Assembly: GCA_964447495.1 (NCBI GenBank)
Contig: CAYUTF010000100.1
Span: forward strand, 1-10,703
From: an uncultured archaeon
Lineage (GTDB): Archaea; Asgardarchaeota; Lokiarchaeia; Sigyniarchaeales; SOKP01
Reading direction: 5' to 3'
Length of the DNA stretch: 10,703 bases
Made by a program: the position numbers and the translations under genes. The notes beneath the pieces were generated by a model. That model had not been told where the DNA came from. It ran no database searches and worked only from the letters and a program-made list of their open reading frames with translations. This document shows, one piece after another, positions 119 through 10,703 of the stretch (within the stretch, counting starts at the first letter, position 1; the number at the start of each line of letters is the position of its first letter).

Positions 119-1621
119 ATGAAGGAAAATGAAATTTACGATATAGCCATTATTGGCGCTGGACCAGGAGGTTATCATTCAGCCATTAGAGCTGCTCAAT
201 ATGGAGCCAAAGTAGCACTGATAGAAAAAAACAAATTAGGTGGTACGTGTTTGAATTGGGGCTGTATTCCAACTAAAGCTTTGTATGCTTCAGCACATTT
301 AATCGAAAAATTTCGGGTTGCAGATGATTTTGGTATAGAAGTAAATGACTTTAAACCTAATTTTGTGAAAGCAGTTGAGCGGAAAAATAAAATTGTGAGA
401 GAATTAGAAGAAGGAATTATGAGTCTGCAAAAAGGTTGGAAAAATGATGTGTATAAAGGTCATGGAAAAATAATAGAAGGAAATGCAGACGAAGGTTTTG
501 AATTATCGATAGAAGGAGAGAATAACACAACTATAAAAGCAAGGAGGGTAATAATCGCCACAGGTTCGACTCCGGCATTGATCCCTGCTTTCAATATTGA
601 CCATAAACGAATTCTAACTAGTGATGATATCTTAGAAACTGATTTTAAAACAGTACCTAAAAGTATTGTAATTGTTGGGGCGGGTGTTATTGGATGCGAA
701 TTTGCCAATATATTTGCAAACTTCGGTAGTAGGGTTGAATTACTTGAGTTCCTGCCTAATCCTATTGCTACTGAAGAACCTGTCATTATAAAAGAACTAC
801 AAAAGAAATTGGAATCATTGGGAGTTAAAATTCATACATCTCAAGCAGTTTTATCTGTAGAAAATACGGGTTCTGGTGTGAAGGCTATTACGTGCTCTGC
901 AGATGTTCCACGAGATCAACAGGAAGATGCTGAGAAATTTATCTATGAAGCGGATTTATGTTTAGTCTCGATTGGAAGAGCTAAAGTATCCAGTGATCTA
1001 GGATTAGAGGAAATGGAAATAGAAACGGAAAGAGGAGCTATTAAAGTAAATCCTTCTACTTTAGAGTGCTCTGTTGAAGGTGTTTATGCAATTGGAGATG
1101 TTAATGGAGGAATAATGCTTGCTCATGTGGCGAGTGCTGAAGGAGATGTAGCAGTAGCAAATGCTTTAGCTAGTATGGGTGGATTTCCCGTTAACTCAAC
1201 TGAGATTGATTACGATGTAATTCCCGCAACCATTTTTACTTCCCCGAATATTGCATCTGTCGGATTAAGAAGAAGTCAAGCACGAGAAAAAGGTATTGAT
1301 ATTTTAATGGGGCAATTCCCTTTTTCAGCACTAGGTAAAGCTAAATGCATGGGTGAAGAGGAGGGTTTTATTATGATTCTTGCAGATAAACATGATTACC
1401 GGATCATCGGTGCCTCTTGTATTGGAACTGAAGCGCCGGAATTGATTTCAGAGATTGCTCTCGCGATGAGACATGGATTAACTGTTCAAGATATAGGTGA
1501 GACTATTCATTCACATCCCACTATTTCGGAAATGGTTCTTGAAGGTAGTGAAGCAGTATTGGGAAGAGCTGTTCACAAGAGAGGGCGTCCTATTCTTCCA
1601 AAACCACGTTATGTATATTAA
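119..1621 (+). CDS. lpdA: Dihydrolipoyl dehydrogenase (E3 / glycine-cleavage L protein)
   Basis: FAD motif IIGAGPGGY, redox disulfide GGTCLNWGCIPTK, NAD motif GAGVIGCEFA, C-terminal catalytic HSHPTISE. SD-like AAGGTTGA lies just upstream of the ATG. Confidence 0.96.
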   Translation: MKENEIYDIAIIGAGPGGYHSAIRAAQYGAKVALIEKNKLGGTCLNWGCIPTKALYASAHLIEKFRVADDFGIEVNDFKPNFVKAVERKNKIVRELEEGIMSLQKGWKNDVYKGHGKIIEGNADEGFELSIEGENNTTIKARRVIIATGSTPALIPAFNIDHKRILTSDDILETDFKTVPKSIVIVGAGVIGCEFANIFANFGSRVELLEFLPNPIATEEPVIIKELQKKLESLGVKIHTSQAVLSVENTGSGVKAITCSADVPRDQQEDAEKFIYEADLCLVSIGRAKVSSDLGLEEMEIETERGAIKVNPSTLECSVEGVYAIGDVNGGIMLAHVASAEGDVAVANALASMGGFPVNSTEIDYDVIPATIFTSPNIASVGLRRSQAREKGIDILMGQFPFSALGKAKCMGEEEGFIMILADKHDYRIIGASCIGTEAPELISEIALAMRHGLTVQDIGETIHSHPTISEMVLEGSEAVLGRAVHKRGRPILPKPRYVY

Positions 1622-2670
1622 ATTCTTACTCCTTTTTTTACTAAATCGTCTATTATTTTTTTTGATGTAGAATTTTCTGATAAATCAAGTGGATTTTGCT
1701 TAATACATAAGTATTGAATACGTGGTAAATTTTTTAACGCTATAGGAAGGCTTGTTAACTTATTATCTAGTAAATCTAATGATTCTAATGAAAGTAAATT
1801 TTCAATTGAATGCGGAAAAGTTATAAGTTTATTATGTCGTAAAGCTAATACTTCAAGATTTGTTAAATTTTCTATAGAATCAGGAAATGTTGAAATTAAA
1901 TTATCGTTTAAATACAATTCCAGTAAATTTTTGCAATTTCCTATTGATTCTGGAAGGTATTCTAATACGTTTTTGTTTACTCGTAATATTTCTAAATTTA
2001 TAAGCTTAGTTATTGTATCTGGGAGTCCTCTCAATTTATTCTGATCTAAATTGAGATATTTTAAACTTGTGGCATTTCCTATTTGATCAGGAAGAAATTT
2101 AAGCTGATTGCATTCACAAAAGATTTCTTCAAGGTTTTTAAGATTCCCTATTGAATCGGGAAGAGTAGATAGTTCATTTTCACTTACGATAAGTATTTGA
2201 AGTGCCTCTAAACCTCCAATATCTTCGGGTAATTCATTTAGACCACAATCATTTAAACCAAGTTCGATAACTCGATGATTTATTACTCGAAAGCTCATTT
2301 GGGGGTTATAAGTTTCATCACATATATATTTAAATGTCATATTGAGAGAGCGTTCGAGTTTTTCTAAAATTTTTACTTCAGATTTGAATATTTTTGTCCC
2401 TCTAAAGAGCGAAAGTTCTTTTTCTTCTTCTTTACTTGCAGATATATCTATTTTTTTAGCAGGTTTAAGAAAAGAATCTTTTACCCATCGTTTTTTTCTT
2501 TGATGCATTTCGTAGGATGTGTGTTTTTTTTGTTCTGTTTTTTCAACAGGTATGTTGCCTGTTAAAACACTCGCGATATCTGAATACCTTAAATGATCAA
2601 GAATAAAGTCTAATTTTGATTCAATACTATCTAATTTTTCTCTTATTTTTTTGATTTCTTCATCAATCAT
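1618..2670 (-). CDS. Leucine-rich repeat protein with an N-terminal coiled-coil-like segment
   Basis: Eight consecutive 23-aa repeats of the form LxxLPxxIxxLxxLxxLxLxxNx (aa ~144-327). The N-terminus has heptad-like periodicity (IDEEIKKIREKLDSIESKLDFILDHL). Confidence 0.93.
   Translation of the reverse strand: MIDEEIKKIREKLDSIESKLDFILDHLRYSDIASVLTGNIPVEKTEQKKHTSYEMHQRKKRWVKDSFLKPAKKIDISASKEEEKELSLFRGTKIFKSEVKILEKLERSLNMTFKYICDETYNPQMSFRVINHRVIELGLNDCGLNELPEDIGGLEALQILIVSENELSTLPDSIGNLKNLEEIFCECNQLKFLPDQIGNATSLKYLNLDQNKLRGLPDTITKLINLEILRVNKNVLEYLPESIGNCKNLLELYLNDNLISTFPDSIENLTNLEVLALRHNKLITFPHSIENLLSLESLDLLDNKLTSLPIALKNLPRIQYLCIKQNPLDLSENSTSKKIIDDLVKKGVRI
1690..2241 (-). repeat. Coding tandem repeat: 8 x 69-nt (23-aa) LRR units
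   Basis: Units begin LNELPEDIGG, LSTLPDSIGN, LKFLPDQIGN, LRGLPDTITK, LEYLPESIGN, ISTFPDSIEN, LITFPHSIEN, LTSLPIALKN, with an exact 23-aa period. Confidence 0.9.
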
Positions 2671-2771: not shown

Positions 2772-2785
2772 AAAAAAAAAAAGAA
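2772..2785 (-). terminator. Archaeal-type oligo(U) terminator closing the redox operon
   Basis: On the minus strand the TAA stop (2788-2786) is followed directly by TTC and then 11 T residues (A-run at 2772-2782 on +), with no GC hairpin before it. Confidence 0.55.
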
Positions 2786-3994
2786 TTATTGTTTATAATT
2801 TCCATAAATCTTTGTGGGAATCCAGTCTTCTCCAACATAATGATACATTTTTTCATATAGTGCTCCTGTTGGACATGCATATACACATGCTAAACAAGTA
2901 ACGCAATCAGTATCACTTAATTTTTGATTCAATCCAGCAGACACAATAGTTCTTGCCCCGCGATTTGCAAATCCAAAATTATGTATTCCCGCAACCTCTT
3001 CACACGTACGAATACATCTACCACAGAGCAAACATCGATTTGGATCCAAGATAAAAGCATCGCTAGAAATATCGAGTGGCAAAAGTTGTTTATTTAGTTT
3101 ATATCGAATAGTATCTATCCCAAATTGATGGATTAGATCCTGTAATTCGCACTTAGTGTTACTCGGACAGAATAGACAATTATGTTCGTGAGCAGCGAGA
3201 ATTAGTTCCAGAATCATGCGACGATATTTATAGAGTTCGTTGTCATCAGTAATTATTTTCATTCCTTCTGATACAGTGGTGGTACACGATGGCACAAGCC
3301 CACGCATACCTTCAACTTTCACTAAGCAAAGTCGACAAGCTCCGACTGATTTTAAACATTCCTTAAAACATAAATGAGGAATTTTAAATCCATGCTCTTC
3401 ACAAGCTACTAATAAATTTTCCCCTTGTTTACTTTGGTACTTTTTTCCATTAATAGTGATCTCTACTAAATTATCTTGAGGAACCTTTCCTATATCTGCA
3501 TCGAAAAAGGTGTCATAAAGACCTAATTGCTGAGCTACATCCTTTAGGGATATTCCTTCAGCTTTGGGTTCTAAAGGTATATCATCATACGGATTTGTAA
3601 GTAATGTGCCTCTCTTTTCAGAGATGTTTCCTACTCCTACAGTTTTAAAGGTTTTTATAATTTTTTTATCTTTAAATTTCTCTTCTACACATTCCCAACC
3701 CTCTTCACAAGCAATCACAATTATGACTGTTGCTTGATCAAATATCTTCTTTTTCTCTTGATTTACTAAACGATCATCAATGAGTTCTGGTACACAAGAC
3801 ACGCTTATTAATTCTTTTTTCAGCACATTATAGCCATCATGGGTCAACATCTTTTCCAGAATTTTCATATTTTTAAAACCGCCAAGGCCCATGAATCTTA
3901 TACAGGTATCACAGCTCCATATTACTATTTTATCATCCTTTGATAACTGTTTCTTTAAATCGTCATAAGATAAAGATCTTAGTGATATAATCAT
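2786..3994 (-). CDS. Fusion of a MetV-N-terminal-like Cys domain and a HoxU/HydA-N/NuoG-N-like Fe-S relay ([2Fe-2S], His/3Cys [4Fe-4S], 2x[4Fe-4S]), without a catalytic domain
   Basis: C-terminal half: LCFKECLKSVGACRLC..PSC, HEHNCLFCPSNTKCELQ, CLLCGRCIRTC, CVTCLACVYACPTGAL, then a stop about 23 aa later. N-terminal half: MIIS..SCDTC..LGG..SC..IACEEG. ATG 3994 is preferred over the track's GTG 4012 because it overlaps the upstream TGA (ATGA) and follows GGTGGAGGG. Confidence 0.85.
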   Translation of the reverse strand: MIISLRSLSYDDLKKQLSKDDKIVIWSCDTCIRFMGLGGFKNMKILEKMLTHDGYNVLKKELISVSCVPELIDDRLVNQEKKKIFDQATVIIVIACEEGWECVEEKFKDKKIIKTFKTVGVGNISEKRGTLLTNPYDDIPLEPKAEGISLKDVAQQLGLYDTFFDADIGKVPQDNLVEITINGKKYQSKQGENLLVACEEHGFKIPHLCFKECLKSVGACRLCLVKVEGMRGLVPSCTTTVSEGMKIITDDNELYKYRRMILELILAAHEHNCLFCPSNTKCELQDLIHQFGIDTIRYKLNKQLLPLDISSDAFILDPNRCLLCGRCIRTCEEVAGIHNFGFANRGARTIVSAGLNQKLSDTDCVTCLACVYACPTGALYEKMYHYVGEDWIPTKIYGNYKQ

Positions 3995-4389
3995 GTTTTT
4001 GGAACCCTCCACCTTTTTGTATTTGTTTTTGAATCAACTATTATTTCTGTGCCTCGATCTTGTAATGCAGGCACGATTTTTTTATCCGGAAAATGTGTTG
4101 TAGCATTTGCACATCCACAAGAACATGCAAGCATTACTAAGGTGTTAACACTGGGATGTAATTCTACATTTTCTATGTAGGAATCTACACAAGGCATTGT
4201 AATCAAAAAACCATCAACAACGTTGAAACTGTCTTTTCTCAATCTATTTGCCAGCATCCTTAGCTTTTTCTCTCCTCCTGTATTCGAAAGACGCGTACAG
4301 GTATTACAACTAATCACAGAAATTACATCCTTCTTAAGATCGAGTTTTCCTTTTATTTCATCATACTTAGCTGGTCTTGTCTTGTTCAA
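3991..4389 (-). CDS. Small stand-alone MetV-N-terminal-like cysteine domain protein (putative Fe-S or metal binding)
   Basis: Pattern SCNTC-x5-TGGEKK...PC...VMLACSCG...FPDKKIVPAL resembles, by recall, the N-terminal domain of MetV (GCxxC..TGGExE..C..LACGxG..P.hhPAL). The TTG start overlaps the upstream TGA (TTGA) and follows AGGAG. It is clearly paralogous to the N-terminus of the next gene. Confidence 0.75.
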   Translation of the reverse strand: MNKTRPAKYDEIKGKLDLKKDVISVISCNTCTRLSNTGGEKKLRMLANRLRKDSFNVVDGFLITMPCVDSYIENVELHPSVNTLVMLACSCGCANATTHFPDKKIVPALQDRGTEIIVDSKTNTKRWRVPKT

Positions 4390-7300
4390 GTTTTCTCATC
4401 TCCTTTTTTTACATCACATCTTAAACATCTAAGGGCTTCCGTAATAGCCTGTCCTTTTGAAAATGTTTGAACTATTTCTTTAAAGTTTTGAACTCTTTCT
4501 TCTAATGGTAATTCAAGAGGGATGTTTCTATTTCCACTTTCAGGCTCTTCCGGAACTTCTGCTTTATAAAAGAACTTTTTAAATAATTTGTTGAAATTGT
4601 CTTTTCCGGTTAGGAAAATATTAATACCTTTAGCGGCATTTTTCCCTTCACCCATTGCCTCTGCACAAGTAGACGGACCAATGATAAAGTCGCCCCCCGC
4701 AAATACTTCAGGAATATTAGTCTGATGTGATAACGGATCTATTGCGATTTTGTCCCGTTGTTTAATTTCAATACCCGAATCTTTAATGAATTCCATTTTT
4801 ACTTTTTCACCAATGGCTTTAATTACCGTATCACAGGGAAATTTAAAGGTTTCACCATCAGGTAATGATTTTAATCTTCCAGACCAATCACATTCGCCAC
4901 ATTTCATTTTCATTAATTCGATTGATTTCACATGATTATTTGATCCAAGGATGTTTTCAGGAGAAACCATGTACATGAAATTTATGCCTTCCTGCTCTGC
5001 TTCTTCAATTTCAGCAATTAAAGCGGGCATATCCCATTTATGACGACGATATGCAATTGTCACTTGAGCTCCAAGTCTAAGTGCAGATCTTGCGGCATCA
5101 ATTGCAGAATTACCTCCTCCAACAACAATGACTTTTCTACCTATTCCAGCAGGTTCATTCTTCGCTATCTTCTCTAATACATCAATCCCTGAAATTACAC
5201 CCTCTAAATCTTCACCCCCACATCTAAGTGGTAGATCTAAATGGGCACCAATGGCTATAAATATGGCATCATATTCATCCTTTAATGATTTAATAGATAT
5301 TTTATCTCCTATTTCGCTATTAAAAAGAAAGTTTGCGCCTAATTGTTCAACAAAACCAATTTCACGATCAAGTACATCTCTTGGTAGTCGATATGGAGGA
5401 ATTGCATATCGTAAAAAACCCCCAGCTTCAGCTCTCTTTTCATAGATATCGACTTTATGTCCTAATCTTAGTAAGTAAAAAGCCGCACTTAATCCCGCTG
5501 GTCCAGAACCAATAATCGCAACTTTTTTACCGGTCGGCGGTAATTTTTCTATGATTAATTTTTTAATTATAGCCTCATCTTTATTCTTTGCATAAGTTGT
5601 ATCTGCAATATACCTATGAAGCTCTCTCGTACTTACCGCTCCGTCAATATCTGTTCTTCTGCATTTAACATTACAATGTGCTCTACAAATTCTTCCAGTT
5701 GATGCAGGTAAACAATTATCAAGTAAAATACACTCAAATGATTCTTCAAGGCGATCTTCTTTGAATAATTGGATAAATCCAGGTATGTTTATATGTAATG
5801 GGCAACTATTTGTACAGTTTGATTGAAAGAGTTTTTGACATACACCTGCACTACAACGATGCTCAATAATATGTTCTTTATACTCATTAAGGAAATATTT
5901 AAGCGTTGTTAATACAGGATTTGGAGCGGTTTGCCCCAGTGCACATAATGAGCAATTTTTAATCATATAACTTAACTCCTCGAGTATATCCAAGTCTGCA
6001 AGTTTTGCTGTACCATCACAAACAGAATTTAATATCTTTAGAGCTTGAGGTAATCCCTCGCGACAAGGAACACATTTACCACATGATTCAGATGCTGTAA
6101 ATGTAACGAAATATCGAGCAATATCACACATACAATTAAACTCATCCATTACTACAACTCCACCACTCCCCATAATTGCTCCTATCCCTGTAAGTGATTC
6201 ATAATCAACAGGTGTACTGAGTAAATCTTTAGGAATACATCCCCCTGAAGGTCCTCCCAATTGAACTGCTTTAATATCCTTAACACTTGAACTACCTCCT
6301 CCTATATTGAAAATCATCTTATCTAATTCTGTACCAAGTGGAATTTCAACTAAACCTGTGTTTTTTACAGTTCCCACTAAAGAAAATACTTTGGTTCCTG
6401 TACAAGTAGGAATCCCTATAGAACTAAACCATTCTCCACCTTTATTTATAATAACAGGAATATTGCTCCACGACTCAACATTATTTATATTAGTTGGTTG
6501 GCCCCAGAGTCCTTTATTTGCTGGAAAGGGGGGTCTAGGTCTTGGTCTACCAGCAGAGTTTTCGATAGAAGCAATAAGTGCCGTCTCTTCTCCACATACA
6601 AACGCTCCCGCACCCTCAACCATATCAATATCAAAAGAAAACTTCGATCCTAAAATATTTTTACCCAGAAACCCATACTCGCGTGCTTGTAGAATAGCTT
6701 CACGAAGTCTTCTAACTGCTAGTGGATATTCAGCACGACAATATATAATCCCTTCTGTTGCTCCCATTGCATAAGCTCCGATAATCATCCCTTCTAAAAC
6801 CATGTGTGGATCGCCTTCCATCTCATTTCGATTCATATATGCTCCGGGATCACCCTCATCTGCATTACAAATAATATATTTATGACTATCTTCTGATTTT
6901 GCACCGCGCATAAATTTCCATTTCAGAGCAGTAGGGAATCCTGCGCCTCCCCGTCCTCTTAGCTTTGCTTTTTCTACTTCCGCAATTACTTGCTCTGGTG
7001 AAAAATTGTTAAGCACTTTATCTAATGCGGAATATCCCCCTACTCCAATGTATTCTTCAATATCATCTGGATTAATTAAACCGCAATGGCGTAATACGAT
7101 TTTTTCTTGTCTTCCAAAATATGGTAGTTCTTTCCATACCTTAATATTTTCATAATTTTTTCCAATTTCAATTTTCTCGGGAAGATTAAGAAAATCCCAC
7201 TCTTCTATTTTGCAAAGCGCTAAATCTTCAGGAATTTCTTTATGTCTTACAAAATCGATAATTTTATCAACATTATAATATTTTACTTGATTCAATAGGA

Positions 7301-7556
7301 CAATAGGATTACCAGGAATATGGATAGATAGAATTGGTTCTTCAAAACAACAACCAAAACAACCCACCGGAACAAGATCAACTTTTGCTTTTATTTTTGT
7401 CGGGATATCCTTTTTCAATTTTTCATATACTTTATCTGCGCCATTTCCAGTCCCACATGTTCCAACTCCTACCGTGACTCGGACATTTTCAGAAAAAATT
7501 TTTTTGAATCCTACTTCTTGAAGGCTTTTAAGCATTTTACTATTCTTTACGATCAT
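4386..7556 (-). CDS. nuoF: NuoF/HydB/HoxF-like FMN-NAD(H) subunit fused to a C-terminal GltD/NfnL-like FAD-NADP(H) oxidoreductase
   Basis: N-terminal thioredoxin-like domain (GTCG..VGCFGCC..EP), LRGRGGAGFPT, CNADEGDPGAYMNR, GAGAFVCGEETAL, GGPSGG, ESCGKCVPCREG..SLCALG, H..CSAGVC. From ~5830 onward: CTNSCPLH, GRICRAHCNVKC, GSGPAGL, GGGNSAIDAAR, AYRR, FAGGD and a terminal EALRCLRCD. An alternative start at ATG 7535 is possible. Confidence 0.92.
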   Translation of the reverse strand: MIVKNSKMLKSLQEVGFKKIFSENVRVTVGVGTCGTGNGADKVYEKLKKDIPTKIKAKVDLVPVGCFGCCFEEPILSIHIPGNPIVLLNQVKYYNVDKIIDFVRHKEIPEDLALCKIEEWDFLNLPEKIEIGKNYENIKVWKELPYFGRQEKIVLRHCGLINPDDIEEYIGVGGYSALDKVLNNFSPEQVIAEVEKAKLRGRGGAGFPTALKWKFMRGAKSEDSHKYIICNADEGDPGAYMNRNEMEGDPHMVLEGMIIGAYAMGATEGIIYCRAEYPLAVRRLREAILQAREYGFLGKNILGSKFSFDIDMVEGAGAFVCGEETALIASIENSAGRPRPRPPFPANKGLWGQPTNINNVESWSNIPVIINKGGEWFSSIGIPTCTGTKVFSLVGTVKNTGLVEIPLGTELDKMIFNIGGGSSSVKDIKAVQLGGPSGGCIPKDLLSTPVDYESLTGIGAIMGSGGVVVMDEFNCMCDIARYFVTFTASESCGKCVPCREGLPQALKILNSVCDGTAKLADLDILEELSYMIKNCSLCALGQTAPNPVLTTLKYFLNEYKEHIIEHRCSAGVCQKLFQSNCTNSCPLHINIPGFIQLFKEDRLEESFECILLDNCLPASTGRICRAHCNVKCRRTDIDGAVSTRELHRYIADTTYAKNKDEAIIKKLIIEKLPPTGKKVAIIGSGPAGLSAAFYLLRLGHKVDIYEKRAEAGGFLRYAIPPYRLPRDVLDREIGFVEQLGANFLFNSEIGDKISIKSLKDEYDAIFIAIGAHLDLPLRCGGEDLEGVISGIDVLEKIAKNEPAGIGRKVIVVGGGNSAIDAARSALRLGAQVTIAYRRHKWDMPALIAEIEEAEQEGINFMYMVSPENILGSNNHVKSIELMKMKCGECDWSGRLKSLPDGETFKFPCDTVIKAIGEKVKMEFIKDSGIEIKQRDKIAIDPLSHQTNIPEVFAGGDFIIGPSTCAEAMGEGKNAAKGINIFLTGKDNFNKLFKKFFYKAEVPEEPESGNRNIPLELPLEERVQNFKEIVQTFSKGQAITEALRCLRCDVKKGDEKT

Positions 7557-8133
7557 TAGAATTCATCTCTTTTTTCTTCTTTTTCTTTTCTTTTTCTTCC
7601 TTTCTAATTTTTTCTATCAAATTCTTCAATTTTTCTGTATTCATATGGGCATGTATTTCTCCATCAAGTTCCATAACAGGAGATAAGGCACATTGACCAA
7701 AACACGCAATGGTCCTTACTGTAAACATTCTGTCAGGAGTTGTAATAAAAATTTTTTCATTTTCATTTATTTCCTCTTCGATGTTTAAATAATCGATCAA
7801 AAACTCTAAAAGAAAGCGAGATCGTTTCGTATGACATGCCGTACCTCTACAAATAGTTATGCAATGTTCACCCTCGGGAATAAGATTGAAAAACGAGAAA
7901 AATGTAACTACGCTAAATATTTTTGCAGTATGAATATTGAGTTTTTCTCCAATATATTGTATTGTATTCATTGGTAAATAATGATAACGATTTAATTTTT
8001 GAACTTCCTCAAGAATCAATAATAACTCACCAGGTTTATTCCGATATTTTGCAATTACTTTATCAACTTCTCCTTGTTCTACTTCAAATTCTATTAATTC
8101 AAATTTATTTTTTTTTTCTATTTTTGCTTCCAT
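7540..8133 (-). CDS. nuoE: NuoE/HydC/HoxE-like [2Fe-2S] subunit
   Basis: LLLILEEVQ..YLP, VVTFFSFF, ICRGTACH and ACFGQCALSPVM supply four Cys ligands. SD GGAGGGAG lies upstream of the ATG. The C-terminal tail is Lys-rich. Confidence 0.92.
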   Translation of the reverse strand: MEAKIEKKNKFELIEFEVEQGEVDKVIAKYRNKPGELLLILEEVQKLNRYHYLPMNTIQYIGEKLNIHTAKIFSVVTFFSFFNLIPEGEHCITICRGTACHTKRSRFLLEFLIDYLNIEEEINENEKIFITTPDRMFTVRTIACFGQCALSPVMELDGEIHAHMNTEKLKNLIEKIRKEEKEKKKKKKEMNSNDRKE

Positions 8134-8138
8134 TTTTA

Positions 8139-8146
8139 CTCCCTCC
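8139..8146 (-). promoter_or_regulatory. Shine-Dalgarno site for the nuoE-like gene
   Basis: The minus strand reads ...GATCGGAGGGAGTAAAAATG. Confidence 0.65.
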
Positions 8147-8222
8147 GATCATATTCATTATCATTCTCGGACATTTAATGATCAATTTCAATAATATTAC
8201 ATGATAATAATAATTTTCTAAC

Positions 8223-8236
8223 TTTTATAATTTCCT
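8223..8236 (-). promoter_or_regulatory. Candidate archaeal BRE-TATA promoter for the redox operon
   Basis: The minus strand reads AGGAAA-TTATAAAA, about 90 nt upstream of the nuoE ATG. The region is very AT-rich, so a chance match is possible. Confidence 0.4.
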
Positions 8237-8446
8237 AATTCATTTAATTATTAATATATTCGAATAAAATTCAGTGTATGTTCGATATTTTACTTTTTCT
8301 TTTTGAGACGATAATGCATTTTAGAGAGATTTTTATATAGATTGAACAATTTTTATTCATTAAGTAATAGATTTCTATCTTCTGATTTAAATTTTATAGG
8401 ATCTGATTCGGATCAGTTTATATAATTATTGATAATTCATTTAAGA

Positions 8447-8479
8447 ATTTGAATTTCTTTCAATAGAAAAAATTCAAAT
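8447..8479. repeat. Inverted repeat in the divergent intergenic region
   Basis: ATTTGAATTT-N13-AAATTCAAAT has perfect 10-bp arms and extends to a 14-bp stem with one bulged C and a 4-nt loop. Confidence 0.45.
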
Positions 8480-8581
8480 CAAAATAGAGATGTGATATTA
8501 TGCGAGTAAATTCTTGCTAACATAAACATACTGATTATTAACAAGGAAATTAGAAATATAATGGATATTTTTTTAAAACGG

Positions 8582-8609
8582 TACTTATTCTTAATACATA
8601 GAATAAGTA
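8582..8609. promoter_or_regulatory. Inverted repeat (candidate operator) abutting the putative iorA TATA box
   Basis: TACTTATTCT-N8-AGAATAAGTA has perfect 10-bp arms. TATTAATA at 8608-8615 ends about 26 nt before GTG 8641. Confidence 0.4.
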
Positions 8610-8640
8610 TTAATATTTAATTTTTAAATACGATAATACT

Positions 8641-10703
8641 GTGAAAATAGCAGAATTATTTCAAGATAGTCCTGGAAAGAAAGTCCTAATATCGGGTAAT
8701 GAAGCTTTTGCTCGTGGTATTTTTGAATCAGGAGTGAGATTTGCGGCTAATTATCCCGGAACACCATTAAGTGAAGTGGGAGATTATCTTAATTTTCTCT
8801 CTAAAAATTCCGATGGTTTTACTTTTGATTATTCTGTTAATGAAAAAGTGGCATTAGAATCGTGTATTGGTGTTAGTTGGACAGGGTTAAGATCTGTAGC
8901 CATGTTCAAACACTTAGGGCTGAATGTGGCAGCAGATCCTTTGCATACTTTTCCCTATTCTGGGGTTGATGGGGGGATGTTAATATTATGTGGGGGAGAT
9001 CCGGGAATTTTATCTTCCACTAATGCTCAAGATAATCGACTTTATTCTTTACATACTAAAATTCCGATAATCGAACCGTCCACAGTTCAAGAATGCAAAG
9101 ATTTCATCAGAGAAGGGTTACGTCTTTCAGAATTATATAAAATTCCGATCTACGTCCATGTAACCAGCAGATTATGCCATAGCCATGGAATAGTCACTTT
9201 AGGAAAGATTAACATGATTGAAAATACGGGAACGTTCAAAAAAGATCCCGATCGTTATATTAATACATTAAATAGGGCTTTATCTAACCAAACTAAGTAT
9301 TTTCAAATTGTAGGTGAACTTGCGAAAAATAAAAAAATATTTTACTTGTTTAATAAGGTAAAAGAGTGGGGTAAAAAGAAGGAAATAGAAGATATCTCTG
9401 AGGTCGGTATCATTACAAGTGGTTTGTGTTATAGCTATGTTATTCAAGCATGTCGTAAACTTGAAATTAAACCACCGATTCTTAAGCTTGGTTTAATATT
9501 TCCGATTAATAGAGATGAAATTTGCACTTTTGCGAATACCTATAATCTAAAGAAACTACTAGTGGTTGAAGAATTAGAACCATTCATTGAAACGGTTTCT
9601 AAACGGACTTTTTGCAATTATTGCGATTCGAAAAGAGATTTAGAAATCCATGGAAAAGATTTCCTCCCCAAGATTGGAGAACTCACCACAGATATTGTGA
9701 TTCGATTTATAATGAACCACTATAACATAGAAAGAGAGCATTTGATTGAGAATATTGACCAGAAAGAACAGATCCTAAAGGAAATACTACCAAGTCTCCC
9801 AATTAGAGAACCAACCTTTTGTGCAGGCTGCCAATATAGACCCGTATTTTATAGTTTAAAAAAAGCTGTGGAAAAATTAAGTGAGAAGAAAGGTTATGAA
9901 TTCATATACGCTGGAGATATAGGATGCTATACGCTTAGTGAATCATATCCCTATCAAATGCTCGATTGGGTCGTGTGTATGGGAGCCGGAATCGGAATTG
10001 CGAATGGGATGGCTCAAGTTGTAAATGAACACCAAAAATTAATCGCATTTATCGGTGATAGCACTTTACTTCATACAGGGCTACAACCTCTCATTAATGC
10101 TATAAAAAATAATACTGAAATGACAATTATCATTTTCAATAATTATTGGACATCCATGACGGGTCAACAAGAACATGCCGGTACGCCTAGATCGCTCATA
10201 GAAGTCCAAGATTCCGCATCAAAACGTGAAAAAAAAGAAATTAATATAATCGCCCTCTTGGAAAATATCGGTTTGGAAAAAGAAAATCTAATAGTTTCAA
10301 GAGCCTATAATATAGAACAATTAGAAAAAGTGTTTTTAAATACTCTTCCAAGACCAGGCACCAAAGTCATTGTAATCAATGAAGAATGTGCACTTGAGAA
10401 AAAACGAAGACAAAAACTATATGAGGACCAAGATGCTGATTTGCAAAAAGAACAAGTATATTATACTATTTTAGATTCATGTATAAAGTGTAATGAGTGT
10501 ATTGAATATTTGGGTTGCCCTGCTATTAATATAGAGATATTAGAAAAGGGGGAAAATCTTTCTGATGATAATATTATACCTAAAAATTATAAATATTTCA
10601 TTAATGAAAGTAGCTGTATGCCAAACATTTGCCCCGGCGTTTGTAAAACAGTGTGTAAGGATAATATGATCAAAAAGACCCTCATCAATCCAAATGATAA
10701 TAA
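8641..10703 (+). CDS. iorA: Indolepyruvate:ferredoxin oxidoreductase subunit alpha (3' end just outside the window)
   Basis: Hand translation from GTG 8641 stays open to the window end (>687 aa), with an in-frame upstream stop at 8611. Motifs: SGNEAFARG, YPGTPLSE, SVNEKVALE, MFKHLGLNVAADPL, VVEELEPFIE, PTFCAGCQYR, GDIGCYTL, CMGAGIG, the TPP-binding IGDSTLLHTG..NNYWTSMTGQQ, and C-terminal CIKCNEC..GCPAI. Confidence 0.93.
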   Translation, partial: MKIAELFQDSPGKKVLISGNEAFARGIFESGVRFAANYPGTPLSEVGDYLNFLSKNSDGFTFDYSVNEKVALESCIGVSWTGLRSVAMFKHLGLNVAADPLHTFPYSGVDGGMLILCGGDPGILSSTNAQDNRLYSLHTKIPIIEPSTVQECKDFIREGLRLSELYKIPIYVHVTSRLCHSHGIVTLGKINMIENTGTFKKDPDRYINTLNRALSNQTKYFQIVGELAKNKKIFYLFNKVKEWGKKKEIEDISEVGIITSGLCYSYVIQACRKLEIKPPILKLGLIFPINRDEICTFANTYNLKKLLVVEELEPFIETVSKRTFCNYCDSKRDLEIHGKDFLPKIGELTTDIVIRFIMNHYNIEREHLIENIDQKEQILKEILPSLPIREPTFCAGCQYRPVFYSLKKAVEKLSEKKGYEFIYAGDIGCYTLSESYPYQMLDWVVCMGAGIGIANGMAQVVNEHQKLIAFIGDSTLLHTGLQPLINAIKNNTEMTIIIFNNYWTSMTGQQEHAGTPRSLIEVQDSASKREKKEINIIALLENIGLEKENLIVSRAYNIEQLEKVFLNTLPRPGTKVIVINEECALEKKRRQKLYEDQDADLQKEQVYYTILDSCIKCNECIEYLGCPAINIEILEKGENLSDDNIIPKNYKYFINESSCMPNICPGVCKTVCKDNMIKKTLINPNDN

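Follow-up and report, generated by a model that had tools for sequence, protein, structure and literature searches.

The window, that is, the whole stretch of 10,703 nucleotides analysed here, comes from an Asgard-type archaeon and contains four genes on the minus strand that encode the proteins termed E, FD, S and U. The features of this operon and its borders are listed below by position in the window; residue numbers of U refer throughout to the 408-aa frame that opens with GTG.

8134-8640, no strand: AT-rich spacer of 507 bp (GC about 0.26-0.28) between the operon and a divergent IorA gene
7540-8133, minus strand: E, 197 aa, NuoE-like
4386-7556, minus strand: FD, 1056 aa, NuoF::GltD fusion
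7137-7490, minus strand: FD residues 23-140, N-terminal thioredoxin-like domain (C34, C66, C70)
5868-7067, minus strand: FD residues 164-563, NuoF core (TIGR01959, PF01512, PF10589)
5838-5876, minus strand: FD residues 561-573, EHIIEHRCSAGVC, His/Cys hinge motif forming the B2 site with C475
4413-5819, minus strand: FD residues 580-1048, NfnL/GltD-like module (PF14691, PF07992)
3991-4389, minus strand: S, a small free four-cysteine protein of 132 aa, MetV-N family, flavodoxin-like fold, with conserved C28, C31, C67 and C89
2786-3994 from ATG (402 aa) or 2786-4012 from GTG (408 aa), minus strand: U
3488-3994, minus strand: UN, MetV-N-family domain of U (C34, C37, C73, C102)
2789-3469, minus strand: HoxU/minimal-BfuA wire of U (Fer2_4, NADH-G_4Fe-4S_3 and Fer4 families of Pfam)
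2772-2782, minus strand: run of 11 T

The junctions were read directly from the DNA and agree with the overlaps given in the original prediction: the ATG of FD at 7556 lies 17 nt inside E, which stops at TAG (7540-7542); FD stop and S start share TTGA (4386-4389); and S stop and U start share ATGA (3991-3994). The start of U is most likely this ATG at 3994, as first proposed, and not GTG at 4012, because all five aligned homologues begin at M7. Downstream, the T11 run noted earlier indeed begins 3 nt past the U stop codon TAA (2786-2788), and it likely marks the end of the transcript; oligo-T tracts terminate archaeal transcription. On the other side, the spacer presumably acts as promoter region for both the operon and the IorA gene, and a scan with a sigma-70 model—unsuited to an archaeon—returned 20 sites against 27.8 expected. 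Logan contigs from four DNA runs contained no indels in the operon and bridged the FD/S and S/U junctions in all four; among the matches listed, three of the four bridged the E/FD junction and three the NuoF-GltD joint, with the caveat that the runs are not fully independent since the one with the best coverage may come from the source sample itself.

Subunits E and FD

E matched PF01257 (E 2.3e-35) and displays Cys95, Cys100, Cys144 and Cys148—the [2Fe-2S] motif of cluster C1 that characterizes BfuC—together with a Lys/Glu-rich tail. The HoxE, NuoE and FDH-gamma models of NCBIfam matched as well, each under its cut-off.

FD combines PF01512, PF10589, PF14691 and PF07992 in one protein and, on these matches, is a BfuB/HydB-type NuoF fused to an NfnL/GltD-type flavoprotein module. 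Its front part aligned with NfnB (9n5u_B, residues 23-578, 3.2e-188) and with 7t2r_B (residues 27-577, 1.2e-187), and it contains the FMN/NADH, B1, B5 and B2 sites by which BfuB is defined (PMC12018979, section 6), at positions 33-37, 65-70, 475, 490-499, 536-541 and 561-573. The thioredoxin-like domain, with a weak match to PF01257 (E 0.0098), corresponds to the B5 site of bifurcating BfuB. The NuoF core reached E 2.8e-135 with TIGR01959, yet stayed under the family cut-off; it includes the NADH/FMN motifs GRGGAGF (201-207) and NADEGDPG (231-238) and the B1 [4Fe-4S] ligands C492, C495, C498 and C538. Moreover, the hinge motif aligned to its equivalent in both 9n5u_B and 7t2r_B, and this B2 ligand set is typical of Bfu B subunits (PMC12018979, section 6).

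The C-terminal module of FD has seven cysteines for two [4Fe-4S] clusters (581-632), the FAD motif GSGPAG (683-688) and the NADPH motifs GGGNSAID (813-820) and YRR (836-838). Its best solved relatives were the NADPH modules of NfnA (9bov_A, 4e-111; 9n5u_A, 2.3e-106) and StnC (8oh5_C, 3.1e-102), followed by NfnL (5jca_L, 2e-91). The module sits at the place of the 2x[4Fe-4S] ferredoxin-like domain of BfuB: the match of FD to BfuB structures stops at residue 578, and the ferredoxin-binding B3/B4 domain (2x CX2CX2CX3CP) is absent. For this reason, we file the operon as a Bfu variant and not as a standard member, and bifurcation is not assured.

The missing domain also speaks for a simple diaphorase, an NAD(P)H:acceptor oxidoreductase that does not bifurcate and would exchange electrons between NAD(P)H and ferredoxin or another carrier with no energetic coupling; B3/B4 is counted among the invariant elements of the bifurcating core, and non-bifurcating NuoEFG relatives are well known (PMC9304861, section 5). 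However, two nucleotide sites and a long wire exceed what a diaphorase needs, and we regard this explanation as improbable.

The U wire and two MetV-N-family domains

On its motifs, U is a UN domain joined to a HoxU-like wire. Residues 182-389 cover HoxU-type Fer2_4, NADH-G_4Fe-4S_3 and 2x[4Fe-4S] regions, with ligands for a [2Fe-2S] cluster (C215, C226, C229, C243), a His-ligated [4Fe-4S] cluster (H275, C279, C282, C288) and two further [4Fe-4S] clusters (C327-C337 and C370-C380), after which the protein ends, lacking the H-cluster domain of HydA.

S and UN found no match in Pfam or NCBIfam even at E<=10, and PF12225 likewise gave none in S or U at that threshold. A profile search nevertheless tied both to the front half of MetV, so that the "MetV-N-like" assignment, originally made from the letters alone, proved right although Pfam is blind to it directly. 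The S+UN profile matched the first ~120 residues of proteins as long as MetV, recovered the genome's own MetV at E 4.3e-17 and gathered a family of 179 representative proteins (E<=0.001); PF12225 lies behind the matched N-terminal domain in 31 of the 113 aligned members. S and UN are paralogues (31% identity, E 2e-17), and a quick tree placed S, UN and MetV in separate groups, with SH-aLRT values of 98 for the S clade and 97 for the MetV clade. Both domains thus have the N-terminal family and the four conserved cysteines in common with MetV of MetVF methylene-THF reductases, but they lack its C-terminal PF12225 half (NGPCGG), are paired, form clades of their own and have no adjacent metF, none being found within the window. 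UN additionally possesses a conserved extension that closes with FFDAD (169-173). Each of the two domains probably holds one [4Fe-4S] cluster, although its four cysteines could instead bind Zn or play a thiol role. A precedent for fusing such a domain to an NADH flavoprotein subunit is RnfC2 of A. woodii, which has an N-terminal MetV domain (PMC8760232, PMC8515935).

Co-folding of U with S scored 0.73 (runs 0.71, 0.73 and 0.76), whereas the best of three controls scored 0.00; at least 67% of contacts were common to the runs, and the pLDDT of the partner was at least 78. Of 80 solved complexes, 58 attain the mark used, compared with 2 of 110 mismatched pairs, counts that apply only approximately here because our own alignments were used; the score expresses model confidence, obtained with shallow, self-built alignments. 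In these models, S approaches U through the region around its cysteines, touching residues 318-319, 372/374 and 387-407 as well as the UN extension (127-153), and is thereby predicted to dock where the wire has its last [4Fe-4S] motif.

Known relatives and the search for a catalytic partner

Domain searches bear out the original observation that the operon carries no catalytic module: no H-cluster, NiFe or molybdopterin domain was found with Pfam and NCBIfam. The genome (98.4% complete) gave no match to the [FeFe] H-cluster family PF02906, for which an equal search was positive in 2 of 14 control genomes. FD is its only NuoF homologue, and no orphan was found among catalytic genes of the classical kinds—both clear NiFe loci come with their own Hdr/MvhD genes, and MetV-MetF lies on another contig behind HdrA::MvhD-HdrC-HdrB. 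The flanks of the operon vary by lineage and offered no conserved neighbour suggestive of a partner, with only U-LRR-Lpd kept in close relatives.

These absences could be read as the loss of hydA or hyhSL from a hydrogenase operon, leaving a decaying remnant kept by chance or for a residual function. Genomes of the same order do have HydABC with a true H-cluster subunit (e.g., PF02906 at E 1.5e-89 in L024), and the closest bacterial E (55% identity) and FD (57% over the full length) belong to a HydA operon, L078. However, none of the four frames is broken and the genes remain coupled in translation, the metal ligands are conserved throughout, S plus U amounts to a gain of a module and no loss, and the four-gene set recurs at 59-85% identity in G035 and L146 (partially in G193), which makes a decaying remnant very improbable.

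Among known systems, NfnABC/StnABC (C. saccharolyticus, 9bov; S. ovata, 8oh5; and the archaeal enzyme of PMC12018979) resemble the complex in their NuoE-like C subunit, in a BfuB with thioredoxin-like N-domain, FMN, B1 and B2 sites, in an NfnL/GltD-type FAD-NADPH module and in having no hydrogenase or pterin chemistry. They differ in that their NADPH module is inserted in BfuA, between its [2Fe-2S] domain and an Fdh/NuoG-like body, whereas here it replaces B3/B4 at the BfuB C-terminus, and U has neither insert nor Fdh/NuoG-like body but two MetV-N-type domains are added. Bacterial HydABC operons with HydB::GltD and, as described in PMC11216029, the archaeal group F hybrid hydrogenase HydBCD share the fused flavoprotein and the NuoE-like subunit; the group F enzyme also has a comparable four-cluster NuoG-like conduit. 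Both of these contain HydA, or HydA-HyhS plus HyhL; here, the HydB, HydC and HydD parts are matched in kind, and contiguous HydA-HyhS and HyhL are absent from operon and genome alike. The NuoE/NuoF/HoxU-like trio recalls the HoxEFU diaphorase, and HoxU and HoxE were among the best NCBIfam names, but the scores fell short of the cut-offs (226.7 bits vs 333 for HoxU; 102.6 vs 224 for HoxE), FD carries bifurcating-type extras and the GltD module, and the hoxYH of HoxEFU(YH) is missing from the operon, the NiFe loci of the genome being Hdr/MvhD-linked. Finally, the GltD/NfnL-type subunit of NfnSL (NfnAB) is homologous to the FD module, which here is fused to NuoF and has no NfnS partner in the operon.

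Distribution of the operon and its proposed role

All four protein identities were as originally called (NuoE, NuoF+GltD, MetV-N and MetV-N+HoxU), but the view that the architecture as a whole was unrecognised did not stand. NuoF::GltD fusions of about 1045-1055 aa number at least 7997 at E<=0.001 (7999 scored candidates), spread over thousands of protein clusters and often found with HydA, and PMC11216029 mentions a glutamate-synthase domain on HydB for archaeal hybrid hydrogenases. Four of the five fusion loci examined were bacterial HydABC operons, and S or UN was absent from all five. The unusual part of the operon is the S+UN pair. Its combination with an NADH/NADPH core is found again in further anaerobes and appears to be undescribed.

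Self-contained E-F-S-U sets occur in Asgard (G035, G046), one Bacteroidales MAG and one Bathyarchaeia MAG (a second Bathyarchaeia contig is cut inside S), in line with the original proposal. In G046, as in these three records from outside Asgard, the F subunit is a canonical BfuB that lacks GltD. Moreover, S+UN also occurs unfused, behind genes for MvhD::ferredoxin and polyferredoxin, within AOR-type and Hdr/fumarate-reductase-like clusters of all five Asgard genomes examined. Bacterial MetV stands directly behind an MvhD-like gene at 8 of 12 MetV loci, which suggests that the family takes up electrons delivered by Fe-S wires.

We propose, with a probability of about 0.5, that the operon encodes a soluble NADH/NADPH core of the Bfu family whose third port, S+UN, would serve a separately encoded partner. 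Against this proposal, the genome already contains NfnSL-like genes, and the need for another NADH/NADPH link is not evident. A self-contained Nfn-like transhydrogenase—a domain-permuted NfnABC that needs no further partner—is possible, if unlikely. NADPH would then enter at the FD flavin module, NAD+ would be reduced at FMN, and ferredoxin would bind at the NfnL-like clusters or at an S+UN cap replacing the lost B3/B4. The kinship of the NADPH module with those of NfnA and StnC fits this idea, as does the divergent IorA, a ferredoxin-reducing enzyme. MetVF enzymes accept electrons from reduced ferredoxin in vitro (PMC8515935, PMC8760232), and a MetV-type domain can therefore handle ferredoxin. 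Two genomes of the same genus (G004 and G016) have E-FD-U (U of 237 aa) amid three glutamate dehydrogenase genes, and in the window's genome two Gdh genes adjoin genes of the NfnL-like and NfnS-like types, hinting at equivalent roles. In G004 and G016, however, a GltB-like gene that follows U after 3 bases may be the real third module of those operons. Since E-FD-U and E-FD-HydA occur without S+UN, FD does not need the pair as a complement, and where S+U accompanies a canonical BfuB with its own ferredoxin-binding domain (L042, L044 and L145) a second ferredoxin port makes little sense. The distribution of S+UN thus leans towards a docking module over a transhydrogenase.

Under the proposed third-port arrangement, the four proteins would form a single soluble complex, an iron-sulfur flavoprotein of the Bfu (HydABC/NfnABC) family devoid of a catalytic third-substrate domain. 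It would receive cluster C1 from E and FMN/NADH with B1, B2 and B5 from the NuoF part of FD, whose FAD/NADPH module, most like that of NfnABC, would replace the ferredoxin-like tail of BfuB. BfuA would be cut down to a four-cluster HoxU-like wire and, at the end where HydA has its H-cluster domain, the two paralogous four-cysteine flavodoxin-fold domains—UN fused, S free—would form a port connecting NADH and NADPH with a third redox partner, which would be a protein or enzyme encoded elsewhere as opposed to a small-molecule substrate. Which clusters are bound, the preference for NADPH, bifurcation itself, the way in which electrons flow and the partner are all inferences. Such a complex would help to keep redox pools in balance in an anaerobe that ferments amino acids. 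In a more speculative and rather unlikely version, S+UN would be a hitherto unrecognised adaptor of the MetV-N superfamily, portable and built of two iron-sulfur proteins, that plugs the electron-bifurcating Bfu (NuoEF-type) and Hdr/MvhD systems onto enzymes encoded elsewhere, connecting the NADH/NADPH core here to a MetF-type methylene-tetrahydrofolate (or H4MPT) reductase or another flavoenzyme. If true, this would represent an energy-coupled reductase of the kind long sought in Wood-Ljungdahl organisms.

Operon layout and the Bfu-type core

The genome of the window comprises 3.81 Mb in 223 contigs, with the window being one entire contig of 10,703 bp. An operon of four minus-strand genes spans 2786–8133, and on its 3' side lie genes for a leucine-rich-repeat (LRR) protein and a dihydrolipoyl dehydrogenase (Lpd):

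119–1621, plus strand: Lpd, converging with the LRR gene, the two 3' ends overlapping by 4 nt
1618–2670, minus strand: LRR protein, 350 aa, with leucine-rich repeats and a coiled-coil-like N-terminus
2786–4012, minus strand: U, a MetV-N-type domain (UN) plus a HoxU-like wire; ORF from a GTG, with ATG 3994 as the likelier start (402 aa)
3991–4389, minus strand: S, a free MetV-N-family protein, 132 aa
4386–7556, minus strand: FD, a NuoF::GltD fusion, 1056 aa
7540–8133, minus strand: E, NuoE-like, 197 aa
507 bp between the operon and the divergent indolepyruvate:ferredoxin oxidoreductase alpha gene: AT-rich spacer
8641–10701, plus strand: this IorA-like gene (TIGR03336, 526.8 bits, under the cut-off of 650.9), extending past the contig end

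The ATG start of U is likely because each of the five homologues aligned starts at Met7 of the 408-aa GTG frame, whose numbering is kept here. The gene junctions described in the original prediction (a 17-nt overlap, TTGA and ATGA) were confirmed on direct reading, and the 11-T tract it had noted lies at 2772–2782, 3 nt past the final stop. The order U, LRR, Lpd is retained on a related contig (L146), U and LRR are retained on a short contig of another genome (G193), and Lpd is found near HydABC in three sister-family genomes (L023, L024, L028).

The operon stretch showed no indels in contigs from four DNA runs labelled salt marsh metagenome, of which the best-matching may be the source sample of the genome; no RNA run was present among the listed sequencing runs containing the stretch. 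The FD/S and S/U junctions were spanned by contigs in all four DNA runs, and the NuoF–GltD joint and the E/FD junction each in three of four, among the pieces listed. As contigs span these joints, the fusions are not assembly artefacts.

E is NuoE/HoxE-like, with four cysteines forming a [2Fe-2S] site. FD residues 23–578 match the B subunits of solved bifurcating enzymes of the Bfu family (BfuABC: HydABC, NfnABC and relatives) end to end—NfnB (9n5u_B, 3.2e-188), NiFe-HydB (7t2r_B, 1.2e-187) and HydB (7q4v_B)—and the alignment includes the NuoF cluster motif as well as the hinge motif EHIIEHRCSAGVC and Cys475, which make up the His/Cys B2 site. In excerpts of PMC12018979, this hinge is described as kept in Bfu B subunits and missing in non-bifurcating homologues, and a standard NuoF-type subunit (BfuB) as continuing into a ferredoxin-like domain with clusters B3 and B4, where ferredoxin binds. 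The BfuB likeness of FD stops at residue 578, beyond which follows an NfnL/GltD-type module whose seven cysteines would ligate two [4Fe-4S] clusters; this module also has an FAD motif and a YRR-containing NADPH motif. Its closest solved relatives are the NADPH modules in NfnA/StnC (9bov_A, 4e-111; 9n5u_A, 2.3e-106; 8oh5_C, 3.1e-102), followed by NfnL of NfnSL (5jca_L, 2e-91). We read the YRR as a putative mark of NADPH preference. U residues 182–389 form a HoxU-like four-cluster wire that carries a [2Fe-2S] cluster, a His-ligated [4Fe-4S] cluster and two further [4Fe-4S] clusters. The HoxU, HoxE and NuoF NCBIfam equivalog scores all fell under their cut-offs.

The MetV-N-type pair and its predicted docking

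Neither S nor UN (U residues 1–180) matched a Pfam or NCBIfam model, and a search at E ≤ 10 was also empty. The two are paralogues (31% identity, E 2e-17) with four invariant cysteines in common. A word-index search with S returned 6 close relatives only; an exhaustive profile search with the S/UN family recovered 179 representatives (E ≤ 0.001). MetV's Pfam domain, PF12225, is present in 31 of 113 aligned family members (111 profile matches plus S and UN) and, in the six PF12225-bearing proteins inspected, sits at about residues 110–212, behind the profile match at about 1–120. It follows that the S/UN domain is the N-terminal half of MetV, a part that Pfam leaves unmodelled, and the MetV-N-like assignment first made from the sequence was thus borne out.

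A quick maximum-likelihood analysis covered 132 sequences; its branch support is SH-aLRT alone, the careful search did not finish, and the midpoint root serves drawing only. MetV proteins formed a group with a support of 97, all 10 labelled S proteins one with 98, and all 10 labelled UN domains, together with 3 fused proteins, one with 93 (core, 97). The AlphaFold model of S (pLDDT 93.3, pTM 0.86) adopts a flavodoxin-like α/β fold, for which Foldseek against the PDB gave no match at E ≤ 0.001 and generic α/β folds only. A PDB profile search with the alignment of the small proteins reached a best E of 0.077, leaving the domain without a solved counterpart in these searches; the PDB matches of a U-containing alignment were discarded as structures of the domain, having arisen solely via the HoxU columns. 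The ESM Atlas returned unnamed small-protein clusters only, and a search for longer fused forms of the small domain, of a type that gives weak evidence, returned none. MetV reportedly carries one or two [4Fe-4S] clusters (PMC8515935 and PMC8760232, in the excerpted text), and by analogy S and UN may each hold one. An apparent selenocysteine in matches from several Asgard genomes was rejected, as the in-match TGA terminates the S gene lying upstream (checked at locus L131).

Co-folding of U with S scored 0.73 (runs 0.71, 0.73 and 0.76) versus 0.00 for the best of three controls. Solved complexes attained the tool's mark in 58 of 80 cases and mismatched pairs in 2 of 110, counts that apply only roughly here, as our own alignments were used. 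The runs had at least 67% of contacts in common, with a partner pLDDT of at least 78. On the S side, the predicted interface comprises residues near its cysteines (29–31, 67–71 and 89–92); on the U side, it involves the last ferredoxin-type motif (372, 374), residues 318–319, the C-terminal tail 387–407 and the conserved UN extension 127–153. The model supports an arrangement in which S would cap the distal end of the U wire—roughly, judging from domain order, where HydA carries its H-cluster domain.

Distribution of the two fusions and of the pair

The NuoF+GltD architecture, part of an arrangement that the original prediction had not recognised from characterised enzymes, proved common: in a search with the joint (FD 470–730), E ≤ 0.001 was reached by at least 7997 proteins, 7999 candidates having been scored, and taken by itself the fusion protein is not new. 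The 120 matches listed all span 98% or more of the joint at 57–100% identity and all contain PF10589, PF14691 and PF07992; three shortened entries (590–663 aa) among those listed lack PF01512. Sources include Omnitrophota, Bacteroidetes, Acidobacteria, Elusimicrobia and others. Five of the 80 kept GTDB loci gathered via the HoxU part carry NuoF::GltD, adjoined by a full HydA in four and by a 242-aa wire only in the fifth, from a Hydrogenedentota MAG. Greening et al. 2024 (PMC11216029, in the excerpted text) mention archaeal hybrid hydrogenases whose HydB bears a glutamate-synthase domain. The terms GltD, glutamate synthase, fused, fusion and MetV are absent from the main text of Schut et al. 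2022 (PMC9304861).

Among 41 related genomes, the full-length fusion was found in the window's own genome (G000), G004, G016 and G035, where the copy is split across two contig ends. G004 (L016, G004:C94 7133–17337) and G016 (L017, G016:C38 6588–16995), both of the window's genus, have the same gene order: glutamate dehydrogenase (Gdh), NuoE-like, NuoF::GltD (1019–1031 aa), HoxU-like U (237 aa), GltB-like, Gdh and Gdh. Beginning after 3 intervening bases past U, the 526-aa GltB-like protein is a distant GltB-FMN-domain homologue (PF01645, E 3.5e-13), and this operon may represent a Bfu-type module linked to the metabolism of glutamate. The FD version of the four-gene operon occurs in G035, on contig L146 and partly in G193.

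The MetV-N::HoxU fusion is rare, with 3 of 80 kept GTDB loci—one in a Bacteroidales MAG (58% identity) and two in Bathyarchaeia (44–49%)—and three to four representative clusters; a metagenome scan with U added one close relative only, on a 6.2-kb contig. L042 and L044, which hold the whole operon on their contigs, read E, F, S and U, where F is a canonical BfuB of 620–621 aa without GltD, and genome G046 has the same operon. The contig of L043 starts within S. The gene 3' of U lies on the opposite strand in L042, L043 and L044, as does the gene 5' of E in L042.

UN matches at E ≤ 1e-8 were found in 16 of 400 sampled genomes of the phylum, with S and UN adjacent in 14; UN is wire-fused in 4 and unfused in 11, and one weak match is probably MetV. 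We inspected five of the 11 unfused cases. Three (G392, G316 and G349) share a cluster of amidohydrolase, ferredoxin, tungsten-type aldehyde:ferredoxin oxidoreductase, MvhD::ferredoxin, polyferredoxin, S and UN, the pair ending the cluster and MvhD being fused to a 2×[4Fe-4S] domain (L141, G316:C28 1130–9123; also L140 and L144). G397 (L142, G397:C9 4274–15032) has 2-oxoacid oxidoreductase subunits, HdrA, MvhD::ferredoxin, polyferredoxin, S, UN, HdrC, HdrB and then a fumarate-reductase-like pair (Fe-S protein, 248 aa; flavoprotein, 569 aa), and may encode an Hdr-coupled fumarate-type reductase. G145 (L143, G145:C48, a 4.4-kb contig) carries S, UN, HdrC, HdrB and the Fe-S protein only, ordered as in G397. 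The pair is thus found both with canonical Bfu cores and in Hdr/MvhD systems, and the simplest account is that S+UN is an independent module at the ends of iron-sulfur wires. In the literature searched, neither MetV-N-type domains on HoxU/BfuA nor the S+UN pair was described.

Candidate partners and the reading of the pair

Bfu-type enzymes are sorted by what is attached to the wire subunit, BfuA: a hydrogenase, a formate dehydrogenase, an NADPH module or a tungsten enzyme. On FD-type cores, this end was found with HydA, the GltB-like protein, nothing (L116) or, in the window, S+UN; here it bears nothing catalytic, just the pair of MetV-N-type domains. In this operon, S+UN would replace the third-substrate domain, and we likewise infer cluster content, electron path, bifurcation and partner, that is, all mechanistic steps.

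No H-cluster gene was found in the window's genome (98.4% complete), and its sole NuoF homologue is FD. Two NiFe hydrogenase loci are clear: one accompanies HypD/HypE and HdrC/HdrB-like genes, and the other lies behind an HdrA::MvhD fusion. A further NiFe match fell under the threshold, and the genome also encodes molybdopterin proteins of 434, 450 and 672 aa. A split operon was rejected on the basis of the H-cluster search and the two clear NiFe loci: no H-cluster gene turned up, and Hdr/MvhD partners already accompany these NiFe loci. On contig C66 (L123, G000:C66 3952–15178), two Gdh genes stand beside NfnL-like (464 aa) and NfnS-like (290 aa) genes, with a distant GltB-FMN-domain homologue of 550 aa 5 kb away; this layout mirrors that of Gdh beside E-FD-U in G004 and G016.

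A link to MetF was also set aside: the genome's MetV-MetF already has its own HdrA::MvhD-HdrCB. This Moorella-like arrangement lies on another contig (L033, G000:C9 5932–12574) and comprises HdrA::MvhD (1162 aa), HdrC, HdrB, MetV (236 aa) and MetF, with a Ras-family GTPase gene directly upstream. Of the five genomes with the S+U module, three have MetF (PF02219) and two PF12225; those without MetF are two Bathyarchaeia MAGs of 1.6–1.7 Mb, completeness unstated. The MetF neighbourhoods in G046 and the Bacteroidales MAG held no clue to a MetF link. The Bacteroidales MAG carrying E-F-S-U also has a 522-aa ORF with MetF-like and PF12225 (MetV C-terminal) parts (L171, G405:C25, 6173–7741).

The closest published idea to S+UN on a Bfu core, as far as the excerpted text goes, is an 'X-type' reductase that Yi et al. 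2021 (PMC8515935) put forward speculatively, in which metFV is preceded by NuoEFG genes. Across 12 MetV loci of five bacterial genomes, an MvhD-like gene lay directly 5' of MetV in eight; NuoE or NuoF lay beside MetV in none, nor was the X-type arrangement of NuoEFG with MetVF found at any. Several bacterial HdrA proteins beside MvhD-MetV-MetF (L158–L168) are fused to a GltD-like module (1216–1489 aa), and at one such locus a 688-aa GltD::MvhD fusion precedes a 344-aa MetV.

As S+U also accompanies a BfuB in which the ferredoxin-binding domain is retained, S+UN probably serves a partner other than ordinary ferredoxin. For this reason, we rank a port for a separately encoded partner, to which we give roughly an even chance, above a self-contained Nfn-like transhydrogenase, in which the four proteins would need no such partner and which we consider unlikely.

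The physiological electron donor of MetVF reductases is a matter of debate. Should the pair prove to be a docking port of general use, it would account for how MetV gets its electrons in these reductases, constitute a new module for flavin-based electron bifurcation and offer a tangible way into the redox balance of fermenting Asgard archaea and Bathyarchaeia.
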